A DNA stretch of 32,000 nt from Candidatus Methanoperedens sp. (GTDB lineage Archaea > Halobacteriota > Methanosarcinia > Methanosarcinales > Methanoperedenaceae). The stretch lies in assembly GCA_027460535.1 (NCBI GenBank), contig JAPZAR010000030.1, positions 1-32,000 on the forward strand. Direction: 5' to 3'. This document shows positions 7,003 through 30,289 of this stretch, one piece after another (positions within the stretch are counted from its first letter, which is position 1; each line of letters opens with the position of its first letter). Below the pieces are notes generated by a model. That model saw nothing but the letters and a program-made list of their open reading frames with translations, was not told the origin of the DNA and did not search any database. A program made the position numbers and the translations under genes.

Positions 7003-7070
7003 CTCGATTGCGAAAGTAATCGTTGGCATACGCTTAATGGTGTCAAGATACTTCAAACGGGGGAAAGAAT

Positions 7071-7685
7071 ATGGAATATGATACATTAGCATCAAAAGAA
7101 ACAGTTGATAAAACAATTAAGGCTTTGAGACCGCGTGGCATCAATGCTGAATTTTTGAATAAGAAAGAAGATGCACTCAATAGATTAAAAAAAATGATCC
7201 CGGCAGGCGCGGAGGTAATGACGGGCGGCTCGACAACTCTTGACCAGATTGGCTTTACGGAAATGCTCAAATCAGGAAGACATCCCTGGAAAAACCTGAA
7301 AGATGCAATACTGGCAGAAAAAGACCCTGCCAAACAGATGGAGCTTCGAAAGAAAAGTGTGACCGCAGAATACATGATCGGCAGCGTGCATGCGGTTGTG
7401 GAGACAGGGGAAGTTCTGGTAGTGAACGCCAGCGGCAGCTCAATTCCCGCATACTCCTTCTCATCTGATAATGTTATCTGGATAGCGGGGACGCAAAAAA
7501 TAGTGCCCGCAGTGGAAGAGGGTTTCAAGCGCCTCCGTGAGTATTGTTTCCCCCTGGAAGACAAAAGAATGAAAAGCGTCGGATATCCGGGAAGCACATT
7601 AGGAAAATTTTTGCTATTTGAGAAGGAAACGAATCCAAGCCGAAAAGTGACTCTCATTTTTGTAAATGAGAAGTTGGGATTTTAG
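7071..7685 (+). CDS. LUD (lactate utilisation, LutC/YkgG-like, DUF162) domain protein
   Basis: 204 aa. The segments ...AGAEVMTGGSTTLDQIGF... and ...GSVHAVVETGEVLVVNASGS... are typical of LUD-domain proteins. Confidence 0.65.
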   Translation: MEYDTLASKETVDKTIKALRPRGINAEFLNKKEDALNRLKKMIPAGAEVMTGGSTTLDQIGFTEMLKSGRHPWKNLKDAILAEKDPAKQMELRKKSVTAEYMIGSVHAVVETGEVLVVNASGSSIPAYSFSSDNVIWIAGTQKIVPAVEEGFKRLREYCFPLEDKRMKSVGYPGSTLGKFLLFEKETNPSRKVTLIFVNEKLGF

Positions 7686-15722: not shown

Positions 15723-15723
15723 C

Positions 15724-15746
15724 ATGCACCGATCGAGATTTGAACC
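15724..15746 (-). other. Orphan 3' fragment of tRNA-Gly (att-like direct repeat)
   Basis: ATGCACCGATCGAGATTTGAACC matches 22 of 23 nt at 30217-30239, which is the T-loop, T-stem 3' strand and acceptor 3' strand of the intact tRNA-Gly. The bases that would form the T-stem 5' strand (GGCGG) cannot pair, so this is only a fragment. Confidence 0.75.
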
Positions 15747-15831
15747 GCCGCCCCCGACACTCGACCCCCCGCGCAGCCGTTGCGGACTCTGCGCACTTTG
15801 CGGTGAAGCCTCCTGATTCTTGCACGGAGCC
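15747..15831 (+). repeat. Copy A of a G+C-rich intergenic element (core TTGCGGACTCTGCGCNCTTTGCGGTG...CCTCCTGATTCTTGCA)
   Basis: The 52-nt core aligns with the copy at 22901-22952 with about 5 mismatches. It directly follows the tRNA fragment. Confidence 0.8.
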
Positions 15832-16028
15832 ACACCTCCCACCAAAAATCAAGCTCCGCAGATCACCCCGCTCTCCAGCATGGCGCCGCTCTGAATCCTG
15901 CGCTCCTGTTCGCATATTCATGGTGTTTTTGAAGCCCTCAGCATGTAACAAGGCATATCATCTCGTAAATATACTAAATAACCTGAATAAGCAGAGAAAT
16001 AAAAGAGCGGACGAAGGTTGCGGTTATC

Positions 16029-16220
16029 ATGAAAGACAGGACTCATACCGAGCATATCGAGCGATGGGCCAAATTTATAAAAACACATCCTCGCTCAATC
16101 TGGATCAGGGAGGTTGGACCTCTGATAGACGCGCAGATAATCATGGCAAATACTTTCTATGAGCGCCTCGCTAAAGTTGAAGGTGGAATTGAGAAAATAA
16201 GAAAACTAAGGAGAATCTAA
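16029..16220 (+). CDS. Hypothetical 63-aa protein directly abutting cas6
   Basis: The ORF ends with TAA at 16218-16220 and the cas6 TTG start is at 16221. AGGAG at ~16208 sits inside its 3' end. No family recognised. Confidence 0.4.
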   Translation: MKDRTHTEHIERWAKFIKTHPRSIWIREVGPLIDAQIIMANTFYERLAKVEGGIEKIRKLRRI

Positions 16221-16988
16221 TTGAGAAGTAAAATAACAGTCAGAAACATCTCAAACCTTCCTGTTAATTTCGATTATCAGTATGGTCTGGCATCAATGCT
16301 CTATTTCAAACTTGCCGGCGCGGATGTCAAGCTGGCTAACGAAACTCATGCTCATCAGGGATTCAAGTTCTATACATTCTCCAATCTTGTGTTGATGAAT
16401 AGAAAAACCTGTAAATCAGGTCTTTGTTTTGAGAGGGCATATTTTATCCTGTCCTCACCTGATGACAGATTCATCAAGAGTTTTACCGAAGGTCTTCTCC
16501 AACACTCAGAATTCTATTTAGATGGACCAGACGGCAGAGCAAATTTCGTAATTGAGCGCATCGAAATACTGAAAGAACCATCTTTAGGCGACGAGTGCTG
16601 GTTCAAGACCGTATCTCCAATCTATGTCAAGACCATGCGTAAAGAGAATGAAAGTTTGAAAGAGGTCGATCTCTATCCTACTGAGCCGAAGTTCTACGAG
16701 AACCTCCACAAGAACCTGACAGAACGCTTCACTGAATTTTATGGCAAAGCACCCCTTGATCATTTCGATGTAATTGAAACTGAGGGCATCAAGCCAAAGC
16801 GCATCAAAATATCAGAAGGCTATAGGCGATGCAATCTCATGAGTCTGCGAATCCAGGCAAGTCCTGAGCTTTTGAAGTTCGCTTACGATGCAGGGCTTGG
16901 GGAGAAGAATGCGATGGGGTTCGGATGTGTGGATGTTGTGGATCAGGGTCAACATATGAAAAATTTAACCGCAGATAAACGCAGATGA
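16221..16988 (+). CDS. cas6: Cas6 CRISPR repeat endoribonuclease
   Basis: 255 aa with a typical N-terminus (MRSKITVRN...) and the C-terminal glycine-rich loop GLGEKNAMGFGCVDVV. It holds the first position of a I-B operon. Confidence 0.9.
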   Translation: MRSKITVRNISNLPVNFDYQYGLASMLYFKLAGADVKLANETHAHQGFKFYTFSNLVLMNRKTCKSGLCFERAYFILSSPDDRFIKSFTEGLLQHSEFYLDGPDGRANFVIERIEILKEPSLGDECWFKTVSPIYVKTMRKENESLKEVDLYPTEPKFYENLHKNLTERFTEFYGKAPLDHFDVIETEGIKPKRIKISEGYRRCNLMSLRIQASPELLKFAYDAGLGEKNAMGFGCVDVVDQGQHMKNLTADKRR

Positions 16989-17000
16989 ACGCAGATTTAT
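16971..17000 (+). repeat. Three tandem 10-bp units GCAGAT(AAAC/GAAC/TTAT) spanning the cas6 stop codon
   Basis: GCAGATAAAC GCAGATGAAC GCAGATTTAT read directly from the sequence. An inverted homologue lies at 23332-23363, with a partial one at 22993-23009. Confidence 0.75.
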
Positions 17001-17084
17001 TAATTGGGCTCTACATTCCGATTACCTGCAAGAAAGCCAAACTAAGAGATGTGCGGGAAAATAGTTTCACCCCGCTCCACAAAG

Positions 17085-17092
17085 TTTTATAA
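17085..17092 (+). promoter_or_regulatory. Candidate archaeal TATA box for the Zn-ribbon ORF/cas8 operon
   Basis: TTTTATAA lies ~25 nt upstream of the start-codon cluster at 17111-17122, which is compatible with a leaderless transcript. Confidence 0.3.
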
Positions 17093-17110
17093 CCTCGCAG
17101 TTAATTTAAA

Positions 17111-17557
17111 GTGTTGATGATGGTGGAGAAAAGAGGTGGAAAAGCAAAGAGCACAAAAATGTTGACAGTAGCATGCTCTATCTGCGGCATGGACATGGAC
17201 TGCCCGGAATCGATGCTGGGGGCGGAGCGGCATTTCTGCGCGCAATGTACTGATCTCATGGCTGAAGGCTATGAGCCTGAGGAACTGAAGATGAGCCCTG
17301 AGGATATAGCGCAGCATTTGCCCGGATGCGATGAGGTATCAATGCTGTTGATGGATCTTACCTTCGATGGCTACTGGAATAAAGTGCTGGAATACGGTAT
17401 AGAGCATTTTGATAATGAAAGGCTTGCGAAACAGAGCTATCTCCGGGGGGCAACTTCGATGCTGGGGCTTTTGATAAGTGCGGGGATGCCGCCGGAGTTT
17501 CTGGATGAACTGGCGGAGGGGATAAGGGGGGAGAGGAGGATGGGGGAGGGGAAGTGA
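17111..17557 (+). CDS. Uncharacterised Zn-ribbon protein encoded between cas6 and cas8
   Basis: 148-aa ORF with CSICG-x15-CAQC followed by a helical region. Its stop TGA (17555-17557) overlaps the cas8 start (GTGATGA). It is G+C-rich, unlike the downstream genes. Confidence 0.5.
   Translation: MLMMVEKRGGKAKSTKMLTVACSICGMDMDCPESMLGAERHFCAQCTDLMAEGYEPEELKMSPEDIAQHLPGCDEVSMLLMDLTFDGYWNKVLEYGIEHFDNERLAKQSYLRGATSMLGLLISAGMPPEFLDELAEGIRGERRMGEGK
17507..17556 (-). repeat. Inverted partial copy (E) of the G+C-rich element, embedded in the 3' end of the Zn-ribbon ORF
   Basis: The reverse complement CACTTCCCCTCCCCCATCCTCCTCTCCCCCCTTATCCCCTCCGCCAGTTC aligns with 22855-22899 (CACTCCCCCGCCCCCCATCCTCCCTCACCCCCGCGCCGCCAGTTC). 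About 38 positions match with a few indels. Confidence 0.7.
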
Positions 17558-18948
17558 TGAATAACGATATCGAAATGAGAAATGAATTTGTTGGGGATCC
17601 AATCGTTGATTCCGGTTTGCTCGCAATTAAATTATTGGGAAATAAAGAAATAAATGACTGTTCAAAAGAAGAATTAAAAAAGATTACAGATGAACTTATT
17701 GAGCTTTATCTAACACCTGCTTGGTCAAAAGATATTTTATCCATATTTCCAAATAGCACTTATGTTCAATATGCCAAGAATTATGATAGAGAAGGAAAGT
17801 CCAAAGAGTTTCTATATGAATTAATAGAAGGTTTAGATAAATCTGAAAATGATGGGGATTATTGTATTTTTTGTGGGAAACATGCATACAAGAGGAAAGA
17901 TAATAAACCTTTCGTCAAAACACAAATACCTTTAGTCGGTTCATCTGATTTTACTAATTTTTCCCCATCATTTAAAAATGGCATTGATATTTGTGCAAAA
18001 TGCGCTTTGGCAATTCAATTTGCACCTATTCTATTTTATAAAACTGGTGGAAAACCAAGTTGCATAAGCTGTAACAATACGGACGTTATGAAAACATTTG
18101 GAGAAGAATGTATAGGATATATTACTCAAAAAAAATTACTGGGTGGTTATAAATCCAAAGACGTTTCTGGCATATTTGATGAAGGTTTTAAATCAACACA
18201 AAATGCCTTGTTTCATTTAGCATATAAAACCTCTACAAAATATAAAAAGTTGGGACTTTTAAAACAAAACGAAGAAATTGTAATATATCGCGTTGATAAT
18301 TACAATCAAAATCCGGCCGGAGTTACAATACATAAAATACCGAATAATATATTCAGATTTGTTATCAATGTGATGACAAGTCCTCAATATAAAAAAAATT
18401 GGTATGATTTACTTTCAAAACATTATGCGAAATCTGATGCAAAAAGTGATTTTCCAGTCTGGAAAGTCAGTTATAATAGGATTCATGATTCTTTATTAAA
18501 AAATGAAAGCATATTATGGGCTTTCAGAGATGATAACGAAAAGAAACCAACATTACCATGGATTATAGTTGAGTCCTATATGGAGTTAGTGAGAAATATG
18601 AATAAACAGAGAATTGAGGGTATCAAAAATCTGGCTGATAAAATCGCCATCTGCATCGAAGAGAATAATAATAAAAAGAGAGTTAATGATATTATTTCAG
18701 CCAGAGATTTTCCAACTTTTAGAAATCAATTGAGATTAGTTTTCAGGGATTGGCAAAAATTAGGTAAGGAGCAACCTATGATAACTTATGAAGATTATAT
18801 CTCAGCAATCATCCCGGAAGATTATTCCAATTGGAAAGAAGTTCAGGATTTGATAATTATAAGGTTATACGAAAAATTGCATAATATGCTATCGAGTGGA
18901 GTAATTGATGATGTCGAACAAGAAAAATCAATAGGTGATGAAGAATGA
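17554..18948 (+). CDS. cas8b: Type I-B large subunit Cas8 (Cas8b/Cst1-like)
   Basis: 464 aa, positioned between cas6 and cas7, with a CIFCG...CAKCA zinc-finger pair as seen in Cst1/Cas8b-type proteins. It overlaps cas7 by 4 nt. Confidence 0.75.
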   Translation: MMNNDIEMRNEFVGDPIVDSGLLAIKLLGNKEINDCSKEELKKITDELIELYLTPAWSKDILSIFPNSTYVQYAKNYDREGKSKEFLYELIEGLDKSENDGDYCIFCGKHAYKRKDNKPFVKTQIPLVGSSDFTNFSPSFKNGIDICAKCALAIQFAPILFYKTGGKPSCISCNNTDVMKTFGEECIGYITQKKLLGGYKSKDVSGIFDEGFKSTQNALFHLAYKTSTKYKKLGLLKQNEEIVIYRVDNYNQNPAGVTIHKIPNNIFRFVINVMTSPQYKKNWYDLLSKHYAKSDAKSDFPVWKVSYNRIHDSLLKNESILWAFRDDNEKKPTLPWIIVESYMELVRNMNKQRIEGIKNLADKIAICIEENNNKKRVNDIISARDFPTFRNQLRLVFRDWQKLGKEQPMITYEDYISAIIPEDYSNWKEVQDLIIIRLYEKLHNMLSSGVIDDVEQEKSIGDEE

Positions 18949-19988
18949 AAACTATAATAGGAACTTACTTAATTGATGCGCCTTTTTCGGCGCTGAATAA
19001 TCGAGGAATAGATCAGGGAGCAGCGAACGAGAATGAAGTAGCAACCAAAGTAATTCAATCTCCAGAAGGAATGAGGCCATACGTTTCAGCACAAGCGTTA
19101 AGATACTGGTGGAGAATGGTTTTAGAAAATAAATTTGGATGGAAATGCTCACCTGTGGAAAAAATTGGAAAAAATCAAGCTGTTACTAAAGGTGATCCGC
19201 TGGAATACGATGATGATGATATTTTTGGGTATATGAGTGCCAGAAAAATTGATACGGGAGAGAAGGATAAAAGTGATAAGCCAAAGATGGAAAATGTAAC
19301 CGTGACAAGGGTATCTCCATTAAAATGCTCGCCTTTAATTGGATTTCCAATACGACCTACTTCAGATTTTGGTGTATTAGTGAGAAAACTTGAAACTGAT
19401 CCAATACTTTTTACTCATCAATTTTATAGCAATATCTTTAAAGGTATTTTTGCGCTGGATATTGATTCCGTAGGGAAATTCACAACAATTGATAAACCTG
19501 GTAGCAAAAACTTGTCAAAAGACCTTGCAGAAAAATATGAAAAAAATGGATTAAAAAAAGATGAAAAAACATATTCACTTCCGTTAGAAAAAAAGAAGAC
19601 GCGAATTTCTGATACCATTAAAGCCTTGAAGTTTTTGAATGGCGGGGCAATGCAGACATTGCATCATACTGATGTAACTCCCAAGTTAATTATGCTGGCA
19701 GTATTGAATAATGGAAATAACATATTCATGGATGTAATGCCTCACAATAAATACGATAATGGATTGGTCAATATCGATGCATTATCTGAGATGTTGGAGG
19801 ATTATAAGGAATCACTGTTGAGCAAAGTCTATATCGGTAAATTATCGGGTTTTGGATCAGATAAAGACAAAGAATTAGAGAGTTTCAAAGCACCATCGGG
19901 AGTTAATGTTGTAATTACGACTCCAGTTAAAGCAATAGATCAATTCATAGAGGAGATATTAACTAATAATAAAATTATTGGCGAGTAA
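18945..19988 (+). CDS. cas7: Cas7 backbone subunit (Cst2/DevR-like)
   Basis: The N-terminus GTYLIDAPFSALNNRG...YVSAQALRYWWR is typical of the Cas7 DevR/Cst2 family. Position in the operon fits. Confidence 0.85.
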   Translation: MKTIIGTYLIDAPFSALNNRGIDQGAANENEVATKVIQSPEGMRPYVSAQALRYWWRMVLENKFGWKCSPVEKIGKNQAVTKGDPLEYDDDDIFGYMSARKIDTGEKDKSDKPKMENVTVTRVSPLKCSPLIGFPIRPTSDFGVLVRKLETDPILFTHQFYSNIFKGIFALDIDSVGKFTTIDKPGSKNLSKDLAEKYEKNGLKKDEKTYSLPLEKKKTRISDTIKALKFLNGGAMQTLHHTDVTPKLIMLAVLNNGNNIFMDVMPHNKYDNGLVNIDALSEMLEDYKESLLSKVYIGKLSGFGSDKDKELESFKAPSGVNVVITTPVKAIDQFIEEILTNNKIIGE

Positions 19989-19989
19989 A

Positions 19990-20643
19990 ATGGAAGTTCT
20001 TCGTGTTGAAATACGGGCAATTACAGCCTCATTTAGATACCCCATGTTTGTGGTATCTTATCAGCCTACATATAAAATTCCTCCAATATCTACGATATAC
20101 GGTTTGCTCTCCGCTGCAAAGGGTGAAAAAGTCAGTATTTATGATTTATCCATTGGTTATGATTTTACATCTAGAGGAAGTGGCGTTGATCTGGAGCGCA
20201 TTCTGGAGTTCGGTGGAGGAGACAAAAATAAACCCGTTTCCTATCTTGGTAGCAATATAATACACAGGGAATTTTTATATGATTGTATATTGACATTATA
20301 TATATCTGATCTAGATTTTAAACAATATTTAGAGAATCCACGTTTCACTCTTTTACTTGGAAGGCAATCAGATTTAGCTAAGATAACAAAGATAAAAGAA
20401 GTGAAATTGATTCCAAAAGAAAATGTTGAAATATATAATACAATTATACCTTTCGATGGAAGAGTGCCAGGGCAAATCGTTGCTTTACCCTCTGATTATA
20501 CTGACAAAGCTGAAAGAAAACCAATTGAAGTAAGAACTTATTGTATCGTAGAATCAAAACAACAGATTGAAAGGGGATACTATGATACTGAGCTAAATAA
20601 GGGAGTTTTTATGCATGAGTTCAACAATAAAAGCCAAAAGTAA
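19990..20643 (+). CDS. cas5: Cas5 (Cas5t-like)
   Basis: MEVLRVEIRAITASFRYP...PPISTIYGLLSAAKG matches the Cas5 N-terminal signature. ATG 19990 lies 2 nt after the cas7 stop; the ORF track uses TTG 19978. Confidence 0.85.
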   Translation: MEVLRVEIRAITASFRYPMFVVSYQPTYKIPPISTIYGLLSAAKGEKVSIYDLSIGYDFTSRGSGVDLERILEFGGGDKNKPVSYLGSNIIHREFLYDCILTLYISDLDFKQYLENPRFTLLLGRQSDLAKITKIKEVKLIPKENVEIYNTIIPFDGRVPGQIVALPSDYTDKAERKPIEVRTYCIVESKQQIERGYYDTELNKGVFMHEFNNKSQK

Positions 20644-22795
20644 TGGCGAATCACTTGAAGAACATATAAATAATTGCCTTAATATTTTTGCTCAACTAAA
20701 GGATATTTATCCAGATTTACAAAAATTTACAAATTATCCTTCTTTTTATAGTGATGCTTTTGATGCTTTGTTTTTTCATGATTTTGGTAAAGCTGCAGAA
20801 GGTTTTCAAAAATCATTATCTCCAAAAGGAGAAAAATGGAAGTATAGGCATGAAATTCTTTCAACACCTTTTATTAACTGCCTGAACAAAGAAAATCTCG
20901 ATTTTGTCAAGATCTTAGTGCTAACTCACCATAAAGATATTAATAAATTAGTCGAATATATTGAAGATAATGATTTTTTGGGGATTCGTTATGAAGAACG
21001 ATTAGAGGAAATCAAACCTAATATAAATGCACTGAATGAAATAATAAAGAAATATCCAGAAATCTCTAAAAAGATATTAGGCTCAATAGAATGCAAGGTC
21101 GATATTATAGAGAAAATATCAAAAGATAAGTCGATATGGGAGGAAATAATACAAAAGAAAAGAATGAACTTTTCATCAAAAATAGGAATCTTTGGAAAAG
21201 GGATGATAAATTCTTGTGATTATTTAGCTTCAAGTGGGATAAAAAAGATACTTAAACCACTACCAAGCTTGAGTGAAGTATATAATTTTAAGTCCTTTAC
21301 GAGTGTTCAGGCAAAATGTTTATCAACAAAAGGTAATGCGATAATTATTTCACCAACTGGTTCTGGAAAAACGGAAGCATCTCTGTTCTGGGCTACAAAT
21401 AATCTCGATAAATCACAAGGAAATAGAATATTTTATGTTTTACCCTACACTGCGAGTATAAACGCAATGTATAGGCGATTATTGATGAAATTAAGCCCAT
21501 ATTATTCAGATGATGGTTGTGTATCGCTATTACATGGAAAAGCGACTTATTTTTTATATAAGATGTTCGAGGATGGTGATTTTAGAGAAATACATAATTT
21601 ATCTAAAAAAATTTATAGTCCATACAAAGTAATGACGCCTTTTCAATGTTTAAAACACTTCTTTTCATTGAAAGGATATGAGATGGGATTATTAGAAATG
21701 TACCGCGGGAGATATATTTTTGATGAGATACACTCCTATGATGCCAAAACAGCGGGATTGATATTATCAATGTGCGAGTATTTGATAGAAGAGAATGATG
21801 CTAAGATATTGATAATGTCTGCAACGATGCCATCATTTCTGAAAAATATGTTTTTAGATAATCTTCATATTGAAAATGAAATGGTTATGGATAAAAAAGA
21901 GTTGAGCAAATACCTTCGCCACAAATGCAAGATAATCGATGGAGATATCCTTGAAAATATTGATTTAATAATAAAAAGATTGCAGAATAAAGAAAAAGTA
22001 TTGGTTGTGTGTAATACAGTAAATAGAGCCCAGGATGTTTATAAATTATTGAGAGATGAAGTTAACGACTCTGCTTTGTTGCATGGCAGATTTATCTTGA
22101 AAGATAGAGAAGCAATTGAAAAAAATCTTGAAAATCTGAATTTATTAGTGGGTACACAAGTCATTGAAGTTTCATTGGATATCGATTATGATGTATGTTT
22201 CTCTGAACCAGCTCCAATTGATGCTTTAATTCAGCGATTTGGAAGAATTAACAGACGAAAAAACAGCGATGGATTACCACTCAAAGGCATTTGCGATGTA
22301 TTTGTTTTTTCAAAAGGTTCTGAAAATGATCGATATATCTATGATACAGAGATTGTAAATAAAACTTTAAAAGTTCTCAATGAAATTGATTTATTGTTTG
22401 AAGATAAATTATATGAAGCAGTCGATGAAATATACATTAATGGTTTTGGCGATAAACTAAAAGAATTTGAAGATACCAAAACTTCATTTAGAAAAATGAT
22501 AGATCGTATAGTACCTTTCAATAATTCAAACACAAAAGAATCAGACTTTTATGATTTATTTAATTCCATAGAAGCGGTTCCTGAAAAATATCGGCATGAA
22601 TATCTTGATTGTATCCGAAATAAAAAGTTATTCGATGCTATGCAATATTGTCTGCAATTAACGAACGGTCAATTTCAAAAACTACTCAAAGAAGGACGGG
22701 TTGATTTCGAAAAAAAGATTTTTATAGAGGCAAAGTATGATCCAGAATTGGGATTATTGATAAATGAACATGAAGAGAATCAAAATATAATATAA
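20615..22795 (+). CDS. cas3: Cas3 HD nuclease-helicase fusion
   Basis: HD domain (HDFGKA, HHKD), Walker A SPTGSGKTEA, DEIH box (FDEIHSYD) and SATMP are all present in this 726-aa protein. Confidence 0.95.
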   Translation: MSSTIKAKSNGESLEEHINNCLNIFAQLKDIYPDLQKFTNYPSFYSDAFDALFFHDFGKAAEGFQKSLSPKGEKWKYRHEILSTPFINCLNKENLDFVKILVLTHHKDINKLVEYIEDNDFLGIRYEERLEEIKPNINALNEIIKKYPEISKKILGSIECKVDIIEKISKDKSIWEEIIQKKRMNFSSKIGIFGKGMINSCDYLASSGIKKILKPLPSLSEVYNFKSFTSVQAKCLSTKGNAIIISPTGSGKTEASLFWATNNLDKSQGNRIFYVLPYTASINAMYRRLLMKLSPYYSDDGCVSLLHGKATYFLYKMFEDGDFREIHNLSKKIYSPYKVMTPFQCLKHFFSLKGYEMGLLEMYRGRYIFDEIHSYDAKTAGLILSMCEYLIEENDAKILIMSATMPSFLKNMFLDNLHIENEMVMDKKELSKYLRHKCKIIDGDILENIDLIIKRLQNKEKVLVVCNTVNRAQDVYKLLRDEVNDSALLHGRFILKDREAIEKNLENLNLLVGTQVIEVSLDIDYDVCFSEPAPIDALIQRFGRINRRKNSDGLPLKGICDVFVFSKGSENDRYIYDTEIVNKTLKVLNEIDLLFEDKLYEAVDEIYINGFGDKLKEFEDTKTSFRKMIDRIVPFNNSNTKESDFYDLFNSIEAVPEKYRHEYLDCIRNKKLFDAMQYCLQLTNGQFQKLLKEGRVDFEKKIFIEAKYDPELGLLINEHEENQNII

Positions 22796-22854
22796 AATTG
22801 CATCAAGAAATCTCATCTCTTATTGCGTTTCATATGGTGTCGCCCTGCCACATC

Positions 22855-23170
22855 CACTCCCCCGCCCCCCATCCTCCCTCACCCCCGCGCCGCCAGTTCT
22901 TTGCGGACTCTGCGCCCTTTGCGGTGATGCCTCCTGATTCTTGCATGGCACCGCATGGAAAAACATCCTAGCAAATGCGATATATCCCATGCAATAAATC
23001 CGCGTTCATAAACCGGAACTTCGGTTTACGCAGTGTTGGGGTATGCGAAGCATATCCCTCGTTTGATAAAACTTTCATAAAGTTTTGCGTCCATCTGCGG
23101 TTTCGTTTTTCGCAGAAGCGCCGGAAATTTATCGCATTCTGTTTATAAAATTTCACCTCAAAGACTGTAA
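22855..23170 (+). repeat. Unit 1 (copy B) of a tandem, degenerate ~325-340-bp non-coding unit
   Basis: Blocks shared with unit 2, in the same order: G+C-rich head, TTTGCGGACTCTGCGC-N-CTTTGCGGTG, CCTGATTC-TGCA, TGCGATATAT, TGCAATAAATC-GCGTT, ATCTGCGG-TTCGTTTTTCG, GAAGCGCC-GAAATTTATC. Confidence 0.75.
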
Positions 23171-23470
23171 GGAGCCCGCCCTCCTGCACGTTCTTCCCCG
23201 ACCCGCCGATACGCGCTCACTTCCGCGCCGCCTGCTCTTTGCGGACTCTGCGCGCTTTGCGGTGGTGCTCCCTGATTCGTGCACAGCGCCGCAGAAAAAA
23301 ACAGTCTGAAGAGTGCGATATATGCCCTTGCAATAAATCTGCGTTAATCTGTGAAATCTGCGGATTCGTTTTTCGGAGAGTGATTAACCATTGTTCTCTG
23401 GAATATTTTTTGCGTTTTTGTGGTTGCTCCGGTCTCCATGAAGCGCCAGAAATTTATCTGGTGCTATATA
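23171..23470 (+). repeat. Unit 2 (copy C) of the tandem non-coding unit
   Basis: Same ordered blocks as unit 1. The core starts at 23238 versus 22900 in unit 1, and the last block starts at 23440 versus 23115. Confidence 0.75.
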
Positions 23471-23581
23471 TATAATTCTTTCTAAAAATTTATTGAAGCA
23501 CAGTAAAATTTTGTGATAAGGCGTCTGAGGTTGTTTTGATCCATAACAATGCTTATATAAGACAATATCAAACTATAATAT

Positions 23582-23812
23582 ATGGCTGAATTGAAAGTTA
23601 CCATTCCTGAAGAACTCTGGAGAAAAATGGCAAGCTTTGAAATAGACTGGCATGCGATCACCAGAGATCTTCTCAAAAAGAAAGTCAATGAACTGAGTGA
23701 TTTGAAATCCATTGTTTCCAAAAGCAAGATGACCGACGAGGATGCGTTAGAGCTTGGTAGAAAGGTTAATAAATCACTTGCAAAAAAATTCAAAACTTCA
23801 GCGATGGGATAA
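23582..23812 (+). CDS. Putative antitoxin partner of the PIN protein (VapB-type)
   Basis: 76-aa ORF whose stop (23810-23812) directly abuts the ATG of the PIN gene. Size and position are typical of antitoxins. Confidence 0.55.
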   Translation: MAELKVTIPEELWRKMASFEIDWHAITRDLLKKKVNELSDLKSIVSKSKMTDEDALELGRKVNKSLAKKFKTSAMG

Positions 23813-24235
23813 ATGCTCCTCATTGTTGATGCCAACGTTGTTTTTTCGGTTCTCATAAAAGGTGGGAAAACATTAGACATTTTTTTTTTGAATAAAGCTA
23901 AAAAAAGATTTGATTTTGTAGCTCCTGAATTTCTTATGGTGGAAGTTGAAAAACACACCAGTGAGATTATTAAGAAAACTGGACTTTCAACAGAAGAGAT
24001 TGGAAAGGTGTTTGATTTTCTTGAAAAAGAAATTGAATTTGTTTCATTTGAAGAGTTTGAAGAATTCTATAAAGAAGCAGAGCAAATATCTCCTGATCCC
24101 AATGATGTTCAGTATTTTGCGCTTGCTATGAAATTAAATGGGGCTATTTGGTCTAATGACAAGGCATTAAAAAAGCAGTTTGTAGTTGATGTGCTATCTA
24201 CAGGGGAAATAATAAAATTAATGGAATTTGAATAG
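23813..24235 (+). CDS. PIN-domain ribonuclease toxin (VapC-like)
   Basis: The sequence MLLIVDANVV..., ...EVEKH..., DPNDVQYFALA and WSNDK supplies the conserved acidic residues of PIN domains. 140 aa. Confidence 0.8.
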   Translation: MLLIVDANVVFSVLIKGGKTLDIFFLNKAKKRFDFVAPEFLMVEVEKHTSEIIKKTGLSTEEIGKVFDFLEKEIEFVSFEEFEEFYKEAEQISPDPNDVQYFALAMKLNGAIWSNDKALKKQFVVDVLSTGEIIKLMEFE

Positions 24236-24256
24236 TTCATATTGTATTATTTTGTT

Positions 24257-24353
24257 ATCCCCCGCTCCCCATCCTCCCTCACCCCCGCGCCGCCAGCTCT
24301 TTGCGGACTCTGCGCCCTCTGCGGTGGGTACGATTCGTACCAATCTGTGCAAG
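24257..24353 (+). repeat. Copy D of the G+C-rich element
   Basis: 24257-24325 is identical to 22858-22926 at 66 of 69 positions (hand alignment). It is followed by the hairpin GGTACG-ATT-CGTACC. Confidence 0.85.
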
Positions 24354-24409
24354 GACAAAGAGTCATCTAAAAAGATGAACCCAACCGTATATTTCATTCA
24401 TCCCAAACC

Positions 24410-24439
24410 TTTATAAATTCAAAAATGAATAAATTCATT
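24410..24439 (+). promoter_or_regulatory. Candidate promoter and operator of the wHTH-NTase/cas4-cas1-cas2 operon
   Basis: TTTATAAA (24410-24417) is followed by the perfect palindrome AATGAAT-AA-ATTCATT (24424-24439), about 20 nt before ATG 24459. Confidence 0.4.
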
Positions 24440-24458
24440 CAAAAATGGTTATATAACT

Positions 24459-25058
24459 ATGAAATTCCACAATGTTCTTGACGAGATATTAGGCAATAGA
24501 ACAAAGGTGAAGCTGCTAAGGGCATTTTTCACCTATCTTGAAAAAGAATTCACAGAAAGCGAACTCCAGAGGATAGCGGGGATACCGCAGGCGAGCGTTC
24601 ACAGGAACGTAAAGTTTCTCCTCGCGAATGGACTTCTTGACAGGGAACGCATCGGAAAGGCAAATCTGTATTCGCTGAACAAAGAGCATATTCTTTATGC
24701 TCTTCTACAGAACATTTTTGAGAATGAAAAAAACCTTCTCTCTGAACTTAAAAAGTCGCTTAAAGGTTCGATTGAAAGCTTTTCTGGGATAGAGTTAGCA
24801 GTACTCTTCGGAAGCGTTTTAAAAGGCACTGAGAGAGCGGACAGCGATATAGATATTTTCATCGTCTGTAAAGCAGATAAATCACAGGTGGAAGAAGAGA
24901 TGAAAAACCTGATCCAGGTTATCGGAAATAAATTCGGAAACCCGGTATCGCCGATGATAAAGAATGATACAGAGATGAAAGACATAAGAAGCAGTTCAAT
25001 ATACAAAGAATTAAAAAGAGGTGAAGTACTCTTTAAGCGCGAGGGATTTGAATGGTGA
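24459..25058 (+). CDS. Winged-HTH / minimal nucleotidyltransferase (MNT-like) fusion protein
   Basis: The N-terminus ESELQRIAGIPQASVHRNVKFLLANGLLDRERIGKANLYSLN is wHTH-like. The C-terminus LFGSVLKGTERADSDIDIFIV carries the GS-x9-11-DxD nucleotidyltransferase motif. Confidence 0.75.
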   Translation: MKFHNVLDEILGNRTKVKLLRAFFTYLEKEFTESELQRIAGIPQASVHRNVKFLLANGLLDRERIGKANLYSLNKEHILYALLQNIFENEKNLLSELKKSLKGSIESFSGIELAVLFGSVLKGTERADSDIDIFIVCKADKSQVEEEMKNLIQVIGNKFGNPVSPMIKNDTEMKDIRSSSIYKELKRGEVLFKREGFEW

Positions 25059-29989: not shown

Positions 29990-30217
29990 GGAGTATCTAT
30001 CATGTGGGCACCGAGGGCATTAATTTGCATATCTTGATGTTGATTTTGTCCGGTTAACATTTAATAAGAAATCATCAATAAATAACCGCTGTCCATGAAT
30101 ATTTTAATGCTAGAAAGATGATAATAAATAGTGGATTCATTTTAGATTCTTTTGAAGCATTAGGAATCGTTCAAAAGTATCGATAATCTTTTTGCCCGGT
30201 TTTTTTTAAAACCGAAA

Positions 30218-30289
30218 TGCACCGATCGGGATTTGAACCCGAGTTATTAGCTTGGAAGGCTAAAGTCATAGCCGCTAGACCATCGGTGC
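30218..30289 (-). tRNA. tRNA-Gly (anticodon UCC), no encoded CCA
   Basis: The reverse complement folds as a cloverleaf: acceptor GCACCGA/TCGGTGC, anticodon stem TTAGC/GCTAA with loop CTTCCAA, and T arm TCGGG-TTCAAAT-CCCGA. It is 71 nt plus a discriminator A. Confidence 0.9.

Follow-up and report, generated by a model that had tools for sequence, protein, structure and literature searches.

Why should a single family of G+C-rich intergenic repeats lie at the seams between the modules of a CRISPR-Cas locus? The question is raised by a 32,000-nt stretch of DNA from Candidatus Methanoperedens sp. (assembly GCA_027460535.1, contig JAPZAR010000030.1, positions 1 to 32,000; this whole stretch is called the window), for which a preliminary description had reported four direct copies of such a repeat (A to D) and one inverted partial copy (E) in the cas locus. 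The results presented here show that the repeat family is a standing non-coding component of Candidatus Methanoperedens CRISPR-Cas loci. Its copies may serve as recombination joints through which interference modules and toxin-antitoxin (TA) cassettes would be exchanged, a reading that we hold with about even confidence.

The locus begins with a 24-nt 3' fragment of tRNA-Gly, followed by copy A, orf63 (a DUF8150 homologue), cas6, a further repeat fragment F and the zinc-ribbon gene ZnR, whose end is E. The middle part is formed by cas8b, cas7, cas5, cas3, B, C, vapBC, D and MNT (an HTH-nucleotidyltransferase gene), and the right part by cas4, cas1, cas2, the leader, a 43-repeat CRISPR array and tRNA-Gly(TCC). 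All four copies A to D are intergenic. They were thought to occupy every junction; in fact they sit at module seams, but neither the MNT-cas4 nor the cas2-leader interval holds a copy. Three assemblies made independently (L169-L171: GCA_027460495.1 and two Logan runs; comparison loci and contigs are given L numbers) have the identical arrangement, so it is not an assembly artefact of the window, and a chimera is improbable.

The core of the repeat, 27 nt long, consists of three heptamers (CTTTGCG, CTCTGCG and CTYTGCG) at a 9-nt phase, with free 2-nt spacers (GA and Cn) between them and GTG at the end, and not of the two half-sites proposed initially. The corresponding pattern GCGGACTCTGCGCNCTNTGCGG has four exact matches on the + strand of the window, at 15782, 22903, 23241 and 24303; no further copy is found elsewhere in the 32 kb at up to three mismatches, and none arose by chance in 100 dinucleotide-preserving shuffles, which confirms the four direct copies. 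They are clustered, the other 23 kb of the window being core-free at up to three mismatches. The head common to B and D was also confirmed as the C-rich CCCCATCCTCCCTCACCCCCGCGCCGCCAG, while the follow-on sequence CCTGATTC(T/G)TGCAC, described as usual after the core, is shared by A, B and C and missing from D.

The core is embedded in a unit of ~330 bp composed, in this order, of the C-rich head, the 27-nt core and a tail. The tail comprises a second triple repeat (ATCTGCGnnn, three times), oligo-T runs and a block resembling a transcription factor B recognition element (BRE) with a TATA box. B and C are two complete units of ~330 bp in tandem, whereas A and D are truncated. B and C also share the blocks GCGATATAT.CC..GCAATAAATCTGCGTT, ATCTGCGG.TTCGTTTTTCG and GAAGCGCC.GAAATTTATC, after which comes a TATA-like run. 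A TATA-like block precedes each head by ~25-30 nt, and oligo-T runs follow the second triple repeat; these putative promoters and terminators were assigned by reading the sequence. The inventory of the window was made by blastn with a clean unit from L053, a metagenome contig that carries an array of at least five units. This query found A at 15780-15827, B at 22857-23009 and 23087-23156, C at 23223-23430, D at 24258-24326 and F at 17001-16967. The family members and the cassette between them are as follows.

15747 to 15834, + strand: copy A, with a weak C-rich head (15747-15778), the core (15779-15805) and a tail that stops after 29 nt (CCTGATTCTTGCAC...); blastn aligns it with unit positions 115-162 at 94%.
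16967 to 17001, - strand: fragment F, an inverted tail block, whose + strand reads CGCAGAT three times at ~10-nt phase; 94% identity to the L053 unit over 35 nt (blastn, E = 6e-10).
17507 to 17556, + strand: E, the G-rich 3' coding end of the ZnR gene, overlapping the ribosome-binding site and start of cas8; its reverse complement resembles the head.
22857 to 23204, + strand: unit B, full length, with head (22857-22899), core (22900-22926), tail (22927-23009), an insert (23010-23085) and the tail remainder (23086-23112).
23205 to 23480, + strand: unit C, with a head variant (23205-23237), core (23238-23264), tail (23265-23430, including AATAAATCTGCGTTAATCTGTGAAATCTGCGG) and a promoter-like block (23440-23477); it covers unit positions 99-307 at 86%.
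23582 to 24235, + strand: the cassette of vapB (RHH_12) and vapC (PIN_2), assigned by Pfam, between the direct copies C and D.
24258 to 24341, + strand: copy D, truncated, with head (24258-24299), core (24300-24326) and the hairpin GGTACGATTCGTACC (24327-24341), found by blastn with the L053 unit.

Copies A to D of the earlier list are retained, A with a weak head, but the inverted tail fragment F (16967-17001) had been missed. F overlaps the stop codon of cas6 and lies upstream of the ZnR gene promoter, and L179, L180 and L184 have kept the F block in their cas6-ZnR spacers. The tail remainder of B (23086-23112) holds ATCTGCGG...TTTTTCG and is followed at 23115-23156 by the promoter-like block GAAGCGCCGGAAATTTATC / TTTATAAAA, which is conserved at unit ends. 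The 75-nt insert in B (23010-23085) is foreign, other units being free of it. It contains two small hairpins (AAACCG...CGGTTT and GGGGTATGC...GCATATCCC), and its relatives stand in tandem at L179 6182-6411, adjoining oapB, as a second, unrelated small repeat family. The promoter-like block of C lies ~105 nt upstream of vapB. An arrangement homologous to A is found at L181 1437-1506, upstream of the genes for a 187-aa protein, DUF8150 and Cas6, and a junction of core plus hairpin like that of D at L180 18228-18269 (90% identical, with a different head). It was ruled out that D abuts the MNT module precisely: the similarity upstream of MNT begins ~40-60 nt past the core.

Conservation within the unit is very uneven. 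Among 23 distinct Methanoperedens copies it amounts to 95% in the core and 48-66% in the flanks; the 2-nt spacers vary between conserved heptamers, and the heads are the least conserved part of the element. Heads and tails occur in several pairings around the core (H1-T1, H1-T2, H1-T4, H2-T1, H3-T1 and H5-T2), and in D, L010, L018+1355 and L180+18229 similarity breaks off a few bases from GCGGTG. A core of two nonamers (TTTGCGGATTCTGCGGTG) is present in L185 at ~7050-7090, after cas3 and before a TumE/MJ0235 pair, which indicates that the number of nonamers is not fixed; slippage or unequal exchange is the presumed cause. In L079 (4451-5045), L153 and L174 (8591-8627) the tail motif AATCTGCGTTCATCTGCGTTCATCTGCGG (ATCTGCG three times, 10-nt phase) is also met alone; L079 has three copies at 281-nt spacing, and the single copy in L174 lies between housekeeping genes.

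Other Methanoperedens loci were collected in two ways. L047, L010, L018 and L031 were found by the DNA pattern in representative genomes, whereas L179-L182, L185 and others were fetched through homologues of ZnR or MNT; all figures on copy number and enrichment rest on genome fragments. The exact pattern gave one or two copies in each of four Methanoperedens representative genomes. The copy in L047 lies 310 nt after the cas3 gene of a different cas7-cas5-cas3 operon, and that in L010 has an AF2212/PIN pair on one side and, on the other, the leader of a CRISPR array with a near-identical repeat. Two copies flank a DUF3368/UPF0175 pair in L018, and the copy in L031 adjoins a Mokosh-like helicase-nuclease.

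The loci fetched through homologous proteins have the following gene orders. L179 reads cas6, F, ZnR, two HEPN-MNT pairs, a ZnR 3' fragment and a type I-D module (a candidate 926-aa large subunit, csc2, csc1 and cas3), followed by at least four units and cas4. L180 has F and a palindromic core doublet between cas6 and ZnR, then a different type I module, the 187-aa and DUF8150 genes, a core with the GGTAYGATTCGTAC hairpin of D, MNT and cas4. L181 starts with a PIN pair, the F block, a head/core and the promoter block that follows A, continues with the 187-aa gene, DUF8150, cas6 and ZnR, and ends with another type I module, unit fragments on either side of a DUF3368/UPF0175 pair, and cas4-cas1-cas2. 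L182 shares the interference module of the window and has one unit, a UPF0175 remnant and cas4-cas1-cas2 after it, and L185 shows cas3, the shortened two-nonamer core, the TumE/MJ0235 pair, MNT-HEPN and cas4. Hence the cas3-cas4 gap carries the family in all six independent loci in which it is visible (the window, L179, L180, L181, L182 and L185), beside TA pairs of five or more families, and the cassette next to the copies is a different one each time. The TA families found beside copies are RHH_12/PIN_2, AF2212/PIN, UPF0175/DUF3368, RHH_8/PIN_3, MJ0235/TumE and HEPN/MNT. Palindromic core doublets are present at L180 9827-9898 and L184 1240-1311. The location of copies at module seams is thus confirmed by further cas loci of Methanoperedens. 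The full head-core-tail unit was met, as far as DNA was sampled, only in cas/CRISPR or toxin-antitoxin contexts, and ~42 kb of other Methanoperedens DNA, fetched via MNT-HEPN pairs and representing housekeeping contexts, contained one solitary ATCTGCG triple and no core at up to five mismatches.

Comparison of the window with its relatives reveals a mosaic. Cas6 is 80-87% identical to its relatives (87% to that of L179), DUF8150 90-94% and ZnR 52-87%, and the adaptation proteins resemble those of L181 (Cas4 86%, Cas1 97%, Cas2 99%), whereas Cas7, Cas5 and Cas3 share 24-30% with relatives, Cas8 has no detectable match and L179 carries type I-D instead. Judged by these identities, closely related adaptation and flanking modules are combined with unrelated interference modules, as is characteristic of modular exchange in archaea. 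At the DNA level, L182 is the closer relative in one block: window positions 17403-23009 (the 3' part of ZnR, cas8 to cas3 and unit B) are 94% identical to it, compared with 83% in cas6 and 78% in the adaptation module outside this block. The L182 alignment is near-identical through the end of cas3, falls to unit-level similarity inside B and is lost at the head of C (~23205). The ZnR gene of L179 matches the window to the middle of E and then diverges, which places a recombination breakpoint inside E-equivalent sequence, and a second, L180-like ZnR 3' fragment precedes the type I-D large-subunit gene there. The head and core of B are 94.3% identical to those of D versus 87.7% to their positional counterpart in L182, the adjoining 3' region of cas3 being 95.8% identical between the window and L182; this gives a weak hint of possible exchange between copies within the locus. 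Among the alternatives listed in the preliminary description, recombination scars or junctions fit best, as the identity mosaic breaks at units and heads and tails are recombined around the core.

We infer that the repeats cause exchange rather than collect at the seams. Tandem arrays of the unit occupy the gap between cas3 and cas4-cas1-cas2, and truncated head/core copies mark other seams. Each copy could provide a portable stretch of homology in which crossovers would fall preferentially in the near-invariant core. Such recombination would swap whole interference modules, and would also capture, delete or swap TA cassettes both between loci and within one locus. The direct copies C and D, for instance, would permit the loss or gain of vapBC, and with shared units on one side and the conserved cas6-ZnR side on the other a double crossover would replace the interference module. 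The exchange would proceed by homologous recombination on 70-330 bp at 80-95% identity or by a site-specific activity. As to its origin, the core may be a local, mostly partner-less derivative of a hairpin motif spread over bacteria and archaea and similar to repetitive extragenic palindromic (REP) sequences.

Several points weigh against recombination joints. No structural variant with its breakpoint in the core was directly observed, and no recombinase or integrase is encoded in the window. The block shared with L182 at 94% identity has its left edge within the ZnR gene and not at a repeat, and the signal of gene conversion between B and D consists of a handful of differences. The association with seams could itself be a consequence, inter-module gaps being tolerant of insertions. 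The strong conservation of the core points to sequence-specific recognition, which plain homologous recombination does not require. Finally, the cas-linked ZnR gene was the route to four of the comparison loci, which therefore test whether cas loci have units, and not whether units are confined to cas loci.

It is conceivable, though unlikely, that the units are cis-regulatory modules. The triple heptamers would then be operator or enhancer sites and the units would supply BRE/TATA promoters, co-ordinating the cas6-cas3 operon, vapBC and the adaptation operon through the ZnR protein, the HTH-MNT protein or an unlinked factor. The orientation of the copies suits this proposal, since each of the four is on the coding strand and precedes a transcription unit (orf63-cas6 in the case of A, vapBC in that of C, and MNT-cas4-cas1-cas2, 130 nt away, in that of D), and so does the pattern of constant heptamers and variable 2-nt spacers. 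Block F is near-unchanged upstream of the ZnR promoter where the surrounding spacer has diverged, and the GAAGCGCCGGAAATTTATC / TTTATAAAA block is kept at unit ends. The HTH of the window MNT protein weakly matches Csa3 models; the protein as a whole matches the PADLOC candidate system PDC-M05A. Yet the copies stand at very different distances from start codons, some arrays of 4-5 units (L053, L179) have no gene that they could control, a convergent gene faces the unit in L047 and L182, and bacterial cores lie mostly downstream of genes and between convergent pairs. No binding protein emerged; the ZnR protein was dropped as a candidate, its AlphaFold model (pLDDT 83) having no PDB fold match with E < 1 and so none that is informative.

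The bacterial cores were found by searching beyond Methanoperedens. An exact 22-mer pattern occurs on 48 contigs of a one-genome-per-species GTDB set, where ~1 is expected by our own estimate from the information in the pattern. The bacterial carriers belong to at least eight phyla (Acidobacteriota, Chloroflexota, Planctomycetota, Verrucomicrobiota, Nitrospinota, Thermodesulfobacteriota, Bacteroidota and Proteobacteria) and the archaeal ones include Thermoplasmata and Methanoperedens; one Planctomycetota metagenome-assembled genome has the 22-mer on 10 contigs. The TTGCGG variant was met in at least 120 metagenome stretches with G+C contents from 34% to 68%. The flanks of the core are lineage-specific. 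A reverse-complement triple within 120 nt, on one side or the other, accompanies the core at about half of the sites (26 of 49 in genomes, 64 of 110 in metagenomes), and the arms of these doublets co-vary (CTCTGCG with CGCAGAG 26:2, CTTTGCG with CGCAAAG 46:11). The neighbour upstream is a same-strand gene in 74 cases and an opposite-strand one in 36, convergent pairs number 35 and divergent pairs 11, and 27 of 168 loci have several copies. There is no common neighbour gene: among the 150 nearest ORFs (open reading frames), with 172 Pfam families, none is present in more than three ORFs. Unit B has no match in the phage and plasmid databases searched, and viral contigs gave 0 and 1 matches to the motif. 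The idea that a second tandem triple generally accompanies the core was rejected, since such a triple is seen at 5 of 130 sites, which is the background rate. The core behaves in the manner of a REP-like element, unusual in that one sequence is shared across domains. The possibility that the family is a generic intergenic repeat applies to the 27-nt core alone, scattered over many phyla without gene association, and not, in the DNA sampled, to the full unit.

A separate observation concerns a bacterial family of high G+C content (60-68%; L063, L083, L089, L106, L124 and others), in which the core terminates an element of ~135 nt. Its conserved upstream part (TTTCCGGCCCTCGAAAGTG...CGAGAG.GG...) is apparently a hairpin with compensating changes, and the element ends in the core and AAATATTTGGGYT; it may be a structured RNA. 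RNAalifold gave no supported structure for 26 members in an untrimmed alignment, because the alignment took in unrelated flanks.

Given this distribution, the units might be selfish passengers, that is, non-autonomous units of the REP/REPIN or MITE type (REPIN, REP doublet forming hairpins; MITE, miniature inverted-repeat transposable element), mobilised in trans and accumulating without any role in the tolerant gaps of defence islands; we regard this too as unlikely, though worth keeping in mind. It would agree with the multi-copy, intergenic occurrence of the core in many phyla, preferentially after genes, with the inverted, co-varying doublets at about half of the sites, with the loci that carry several copies, and with the palindromic doublets of Methanoperedens in L180 and L184. 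Assemblies also break at the repeats: L170 and L171, two other assemblies of the window locus, end exactly in F and B, and the metagenome contig L103 is a chimera in which a bacterial segment of 72-80% G+C (1-1750) is fused to Methanoperedens units (1750-2937) at the head/core, so that the repeats both break and chimerise metagenome assemblies. Against selfish passengers stand the window copies themselves, which have neither a partner arm, nor terminal inverted repeats, nor a fold signal, and the confinement of the full unit, in the DNA sampled, to cas or TA contexts. Y1/HUH transposases are missing from the window and from the common neighbours; in particular, no RAYT (the Y1 transposase of REP elements) was found in the 32-kb window or among the 25 commonest families of the 150 flanking ORFs. 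Moreover, identical junction types recur at homologous positions of diverged loci and hence look inherited or recombined, not independently inserted.

Known repeat classes were compared with the window copies directly. The suggestion of a MITE-like element was discarded, as no inverted repeat pairs the unit ends and no flanking duplications are seen in the copy alignments. With respect to REP elements, the position of the core agrees (extragenic, biased to gene 3' ends), but the hairpin does not: the window copies have no partner arm and fold no better than shuffles. A CreTA psi-repeat was rejected, since outside the array nothing matches the 30-nt CRISPR repeat with fewer than 12 mismatches, and the three matches at 12 mismatches lie outside the units. 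Nor are the copies remnants of a coding gene: five of six frames are similarly open over the core (medians 44-72 codons), no frame is preferred, and the 10 overlapping ORFs have no Pfam match. One apparent exception is the resemblance of the head to the end of the ZnR gene at the DNA level.

This resemblance is that of E, which had been described as an inverted copy of the head. The similarity stands: the reverse complement of E aligns with the head of B at a Smith-Waterman score of 41, compared with 21.3 +/- 3.7 for dinucleotide shuffles, none of 1000 reaching 41, and E is the best match to the head in the window outside the family. An insertion, on the other hand, is not supported. E is the end of the 148-aa ZnR ORF, and 51 homologues keep the encoded tail ...DELAEG[IM]RGAKR[RG]MGEGK, with conservation of this tail recorded for 23 homologues; since it encodes this conserved C-terminus, E is native coding sequence. 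If the similarity to the head is homology, the head would derive from an inverted 3' fragment of ZnR and not the reverse. The ZnR gene (17111-17557) belongs to a family of ~145-aa zinc-ribbon plus helical proteins, whose named homologues among the 51 come from Candidatus Methanoperedens or uncultured Euryarchaeota. It is situated between cas6 and the large-subunit gene in every locus examined, whether the module is I-B-like or I-D, and is often duplicated as fragments around HEPN-MNT insertions (L179, L182, L183).

A bolder reading is that the triple nonamer is a cross-domain recognition site of a widely transferred recombinase, HUH-type nuclease or binding protein, recruited in Methanoperedens as an integron-like platform within CRISPR-Cas loci that would capture TA or defence cassettes and swap interference modules. 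We consider this improbable; if true, CRISPR-Cas systems would have in this platform a mechanism dedicated to their modular exchange, which itself has long been known.

Still less probable is a site-specific cassette platform in which the core is the crossover site of a recombinase, like attC or an att core, with TA and cas modules as its cassettes. In integrons, direct copies of the conserved attC separate variable cassettes, many of them TA pairs. The loci described here are similar in that direct copies bracket vapBC (C and D) and the DUF3368/UPF0175 pair of L018, unit fragments stand on either side of the TA pair in L181, and similarity stops at both edges of a constant core of ~30 nt. The island itself is bracketed by att-like tRNA repeats, and an integrase gene lies upstream of the L180 cas locus. 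They differ from integrons in the absence of IntI, attI and the R''/L''-L'/R' palindrome, in cassettes of either orientation and in arrays of empty tandem units. An attC/cassette array was rejected for the window, whose copies are not palindromic like attC and form no hairpin and which encodes no integrase, with no recombinase in or near the locus; besides, the bacterial copies do not occur in cassette arrays and have no common neighbour gene, and the L182 breakpoint is at a unit boundary, not in the core.

The least probable possibility is that the units are genes for a small RNA of ~190-250 nt, which would be transcribed from the TATA-like block ~25-30 nt before each head and would end at the oligo-T runs past the second triple repeat. 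Its C-rich, anti-Shine-Dalgarno-like head would pair with G-rich ribosome-binding regions, for example E where cas8 begins; the complementarity of the head to 17526-17551, shortly before that gene starts, reaches 77%. Against this, the heads are the least conserved part of the element, and the complementarity is at least equally explained by common descent with the ZnR gene end. The earlier suggestion of a small RNA, in the sense of a structured one, is not supported either: folds of A-D on both strands have z values of -1.55 to +1.32 against shuffles, with no shared structure and no Rfam match. The Rfam searches covered window positions 22700-24500 at E <= 5, where only chance matches inside vapC appeared, and 38 core-bearing loci at the gathering score, where only two tRNAs and one cobalamin riboswitch were found.

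The surroundings of the repeats in the window offer some further observations. The features concerned are listed below.

15723 to 15746, - strand: a 24-nt copy of the tRNA-Gly(TCC) 3' end, directly before A, matching 30216-30239 at 23 of 24 positions.
15901 to 16028, + strand: the promoter block and first ~9 codons of the deleted 187-aa gene, leading into orf63; 80-83% identical to L180 17287-17393 and L181 1518-1629.
30216 to 30289, - strand: tRNA-Gly(TCC) (ARAGORN, Rfam), whose 3' 24 nt form the right-hand att-like repeat.

The CRISPR-Cas locus, 14.5 kb long, is thus bracketed by a 24-nt direct repeat (15723-15746 and 30216-30239) from the 3' end of tRNA-Gly(TCC), by its sequence the signature of an element presumably integrated in a tRNA gene. 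No integrase is present inside the bracketed island. Related cas loci lie at unrelated chromosomal sites; L180 adjoins tRNA-Arg, tRNA-Thr and a Phage_integrase gene, the latter ~5 kb upstream of cas6. The DUF8150 homologue orf63 (within 15901-16220) is 94% identical to its L180 counterpart. The 187-aa gene, which precedes DUF8150 in L180, L181 and L018, is deleted in the window; its remnant consists of the promoter block and ~nine N-terminal codons, with the start ATG changed to ATA, and matches the 187-aa protein of L018 (E = 7e-4). The MNT gene (24459-25058) is the MNT half of the MNT-HEPN pairs of relatives, the HEPN partner being missing in the window; in L185 the pair stands directly before cas4. 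The G+C content is ~28-35% in the cas8-cas3 module (17560-22800), 41-52% on the cas6/ZnR side and ~40% in the adaptation genes, and shifts abruptly at the ZnR/cas8 overlap.

Of the known systems, REPs and REPINs are the closest class for the core. REPs are individually palindromic, largely lineage-specific and vertically inherited, and REPINs are mobilised by RAYT transposases (PMC3116915, PMC3337134). The core resembles REPs, REPINs and bacterial interspersed mosaic elements in being short, G+C-rich, extragenic and multi-copy, and outside the window it is commonly an inverted doublet forming an imperfect hairpin after genes, with lineage-specific flanks. It differs in its three direct nonamers over 27 nt and in being common across domains whereas REPs are lineage-specific; the window copies are solo and without hairpin, RAYT was found neither in the window nor among the common neighbours, and the Methanoperedens unit is a 330-bp composite tied to cas/TA loci.

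With regard to function, adaptation and interference cassettes of archaeal cas loci are known to be exchanged modularly, with vapBC pairs interspersed (Vestergaard, Garrett and Shah 2014, PMC3973734; Garrett et al. 2015, PMC4390879). The same picture of conserved adaptation modules joined to different type I interference modules, with TA pairs between cassettes, is seen here. The difference is that these two papers describe no dedicated DNA element at the seams (the terms 'intergenic' and 'repeat element' do not occur in the text of PMC3973734), whereas here a repeat family marks them. The closest archaeal functional counterpart is provided by the dispersed recombination motifs of Sulfolobus conjugative plasmids of the pNOB8/pING family (PMC4390879, section 2.2). 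These too are short conserved motifs scattered in archaeal DNA, with variants arising by recombination, but they differ in sequence, host and replicon, the present family being chromosomal, located in cas loci and embedded in a larger unit. A literature search by sequence strings found no paper on the core, and a keyword search (Methanoperedens, intergenic repeats, CRISPR) found only papers on Borg, plasmid and other extrachromosomal elements and on unrelated software.

Modular exchange is well known, yet in the literature searched by string and keyword no DNA feature has been tied to the seams. The core is near-identical from archaea to at least eight bacterial phyla, in genomes of 34-68% G+C, and neither an annotation nor a publication was found for it. 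Either a REP-like element of very wide distribution has been overlooked here, or the core is the site of a conserved factor. In Methanoperedens, the presence of the unit at the seams of several loci with different type I modules offers a tangible starting point for testing how defence loci are rebuilt: the repeat may be the joint that makes the swapping of modules and TA cassettes possible.

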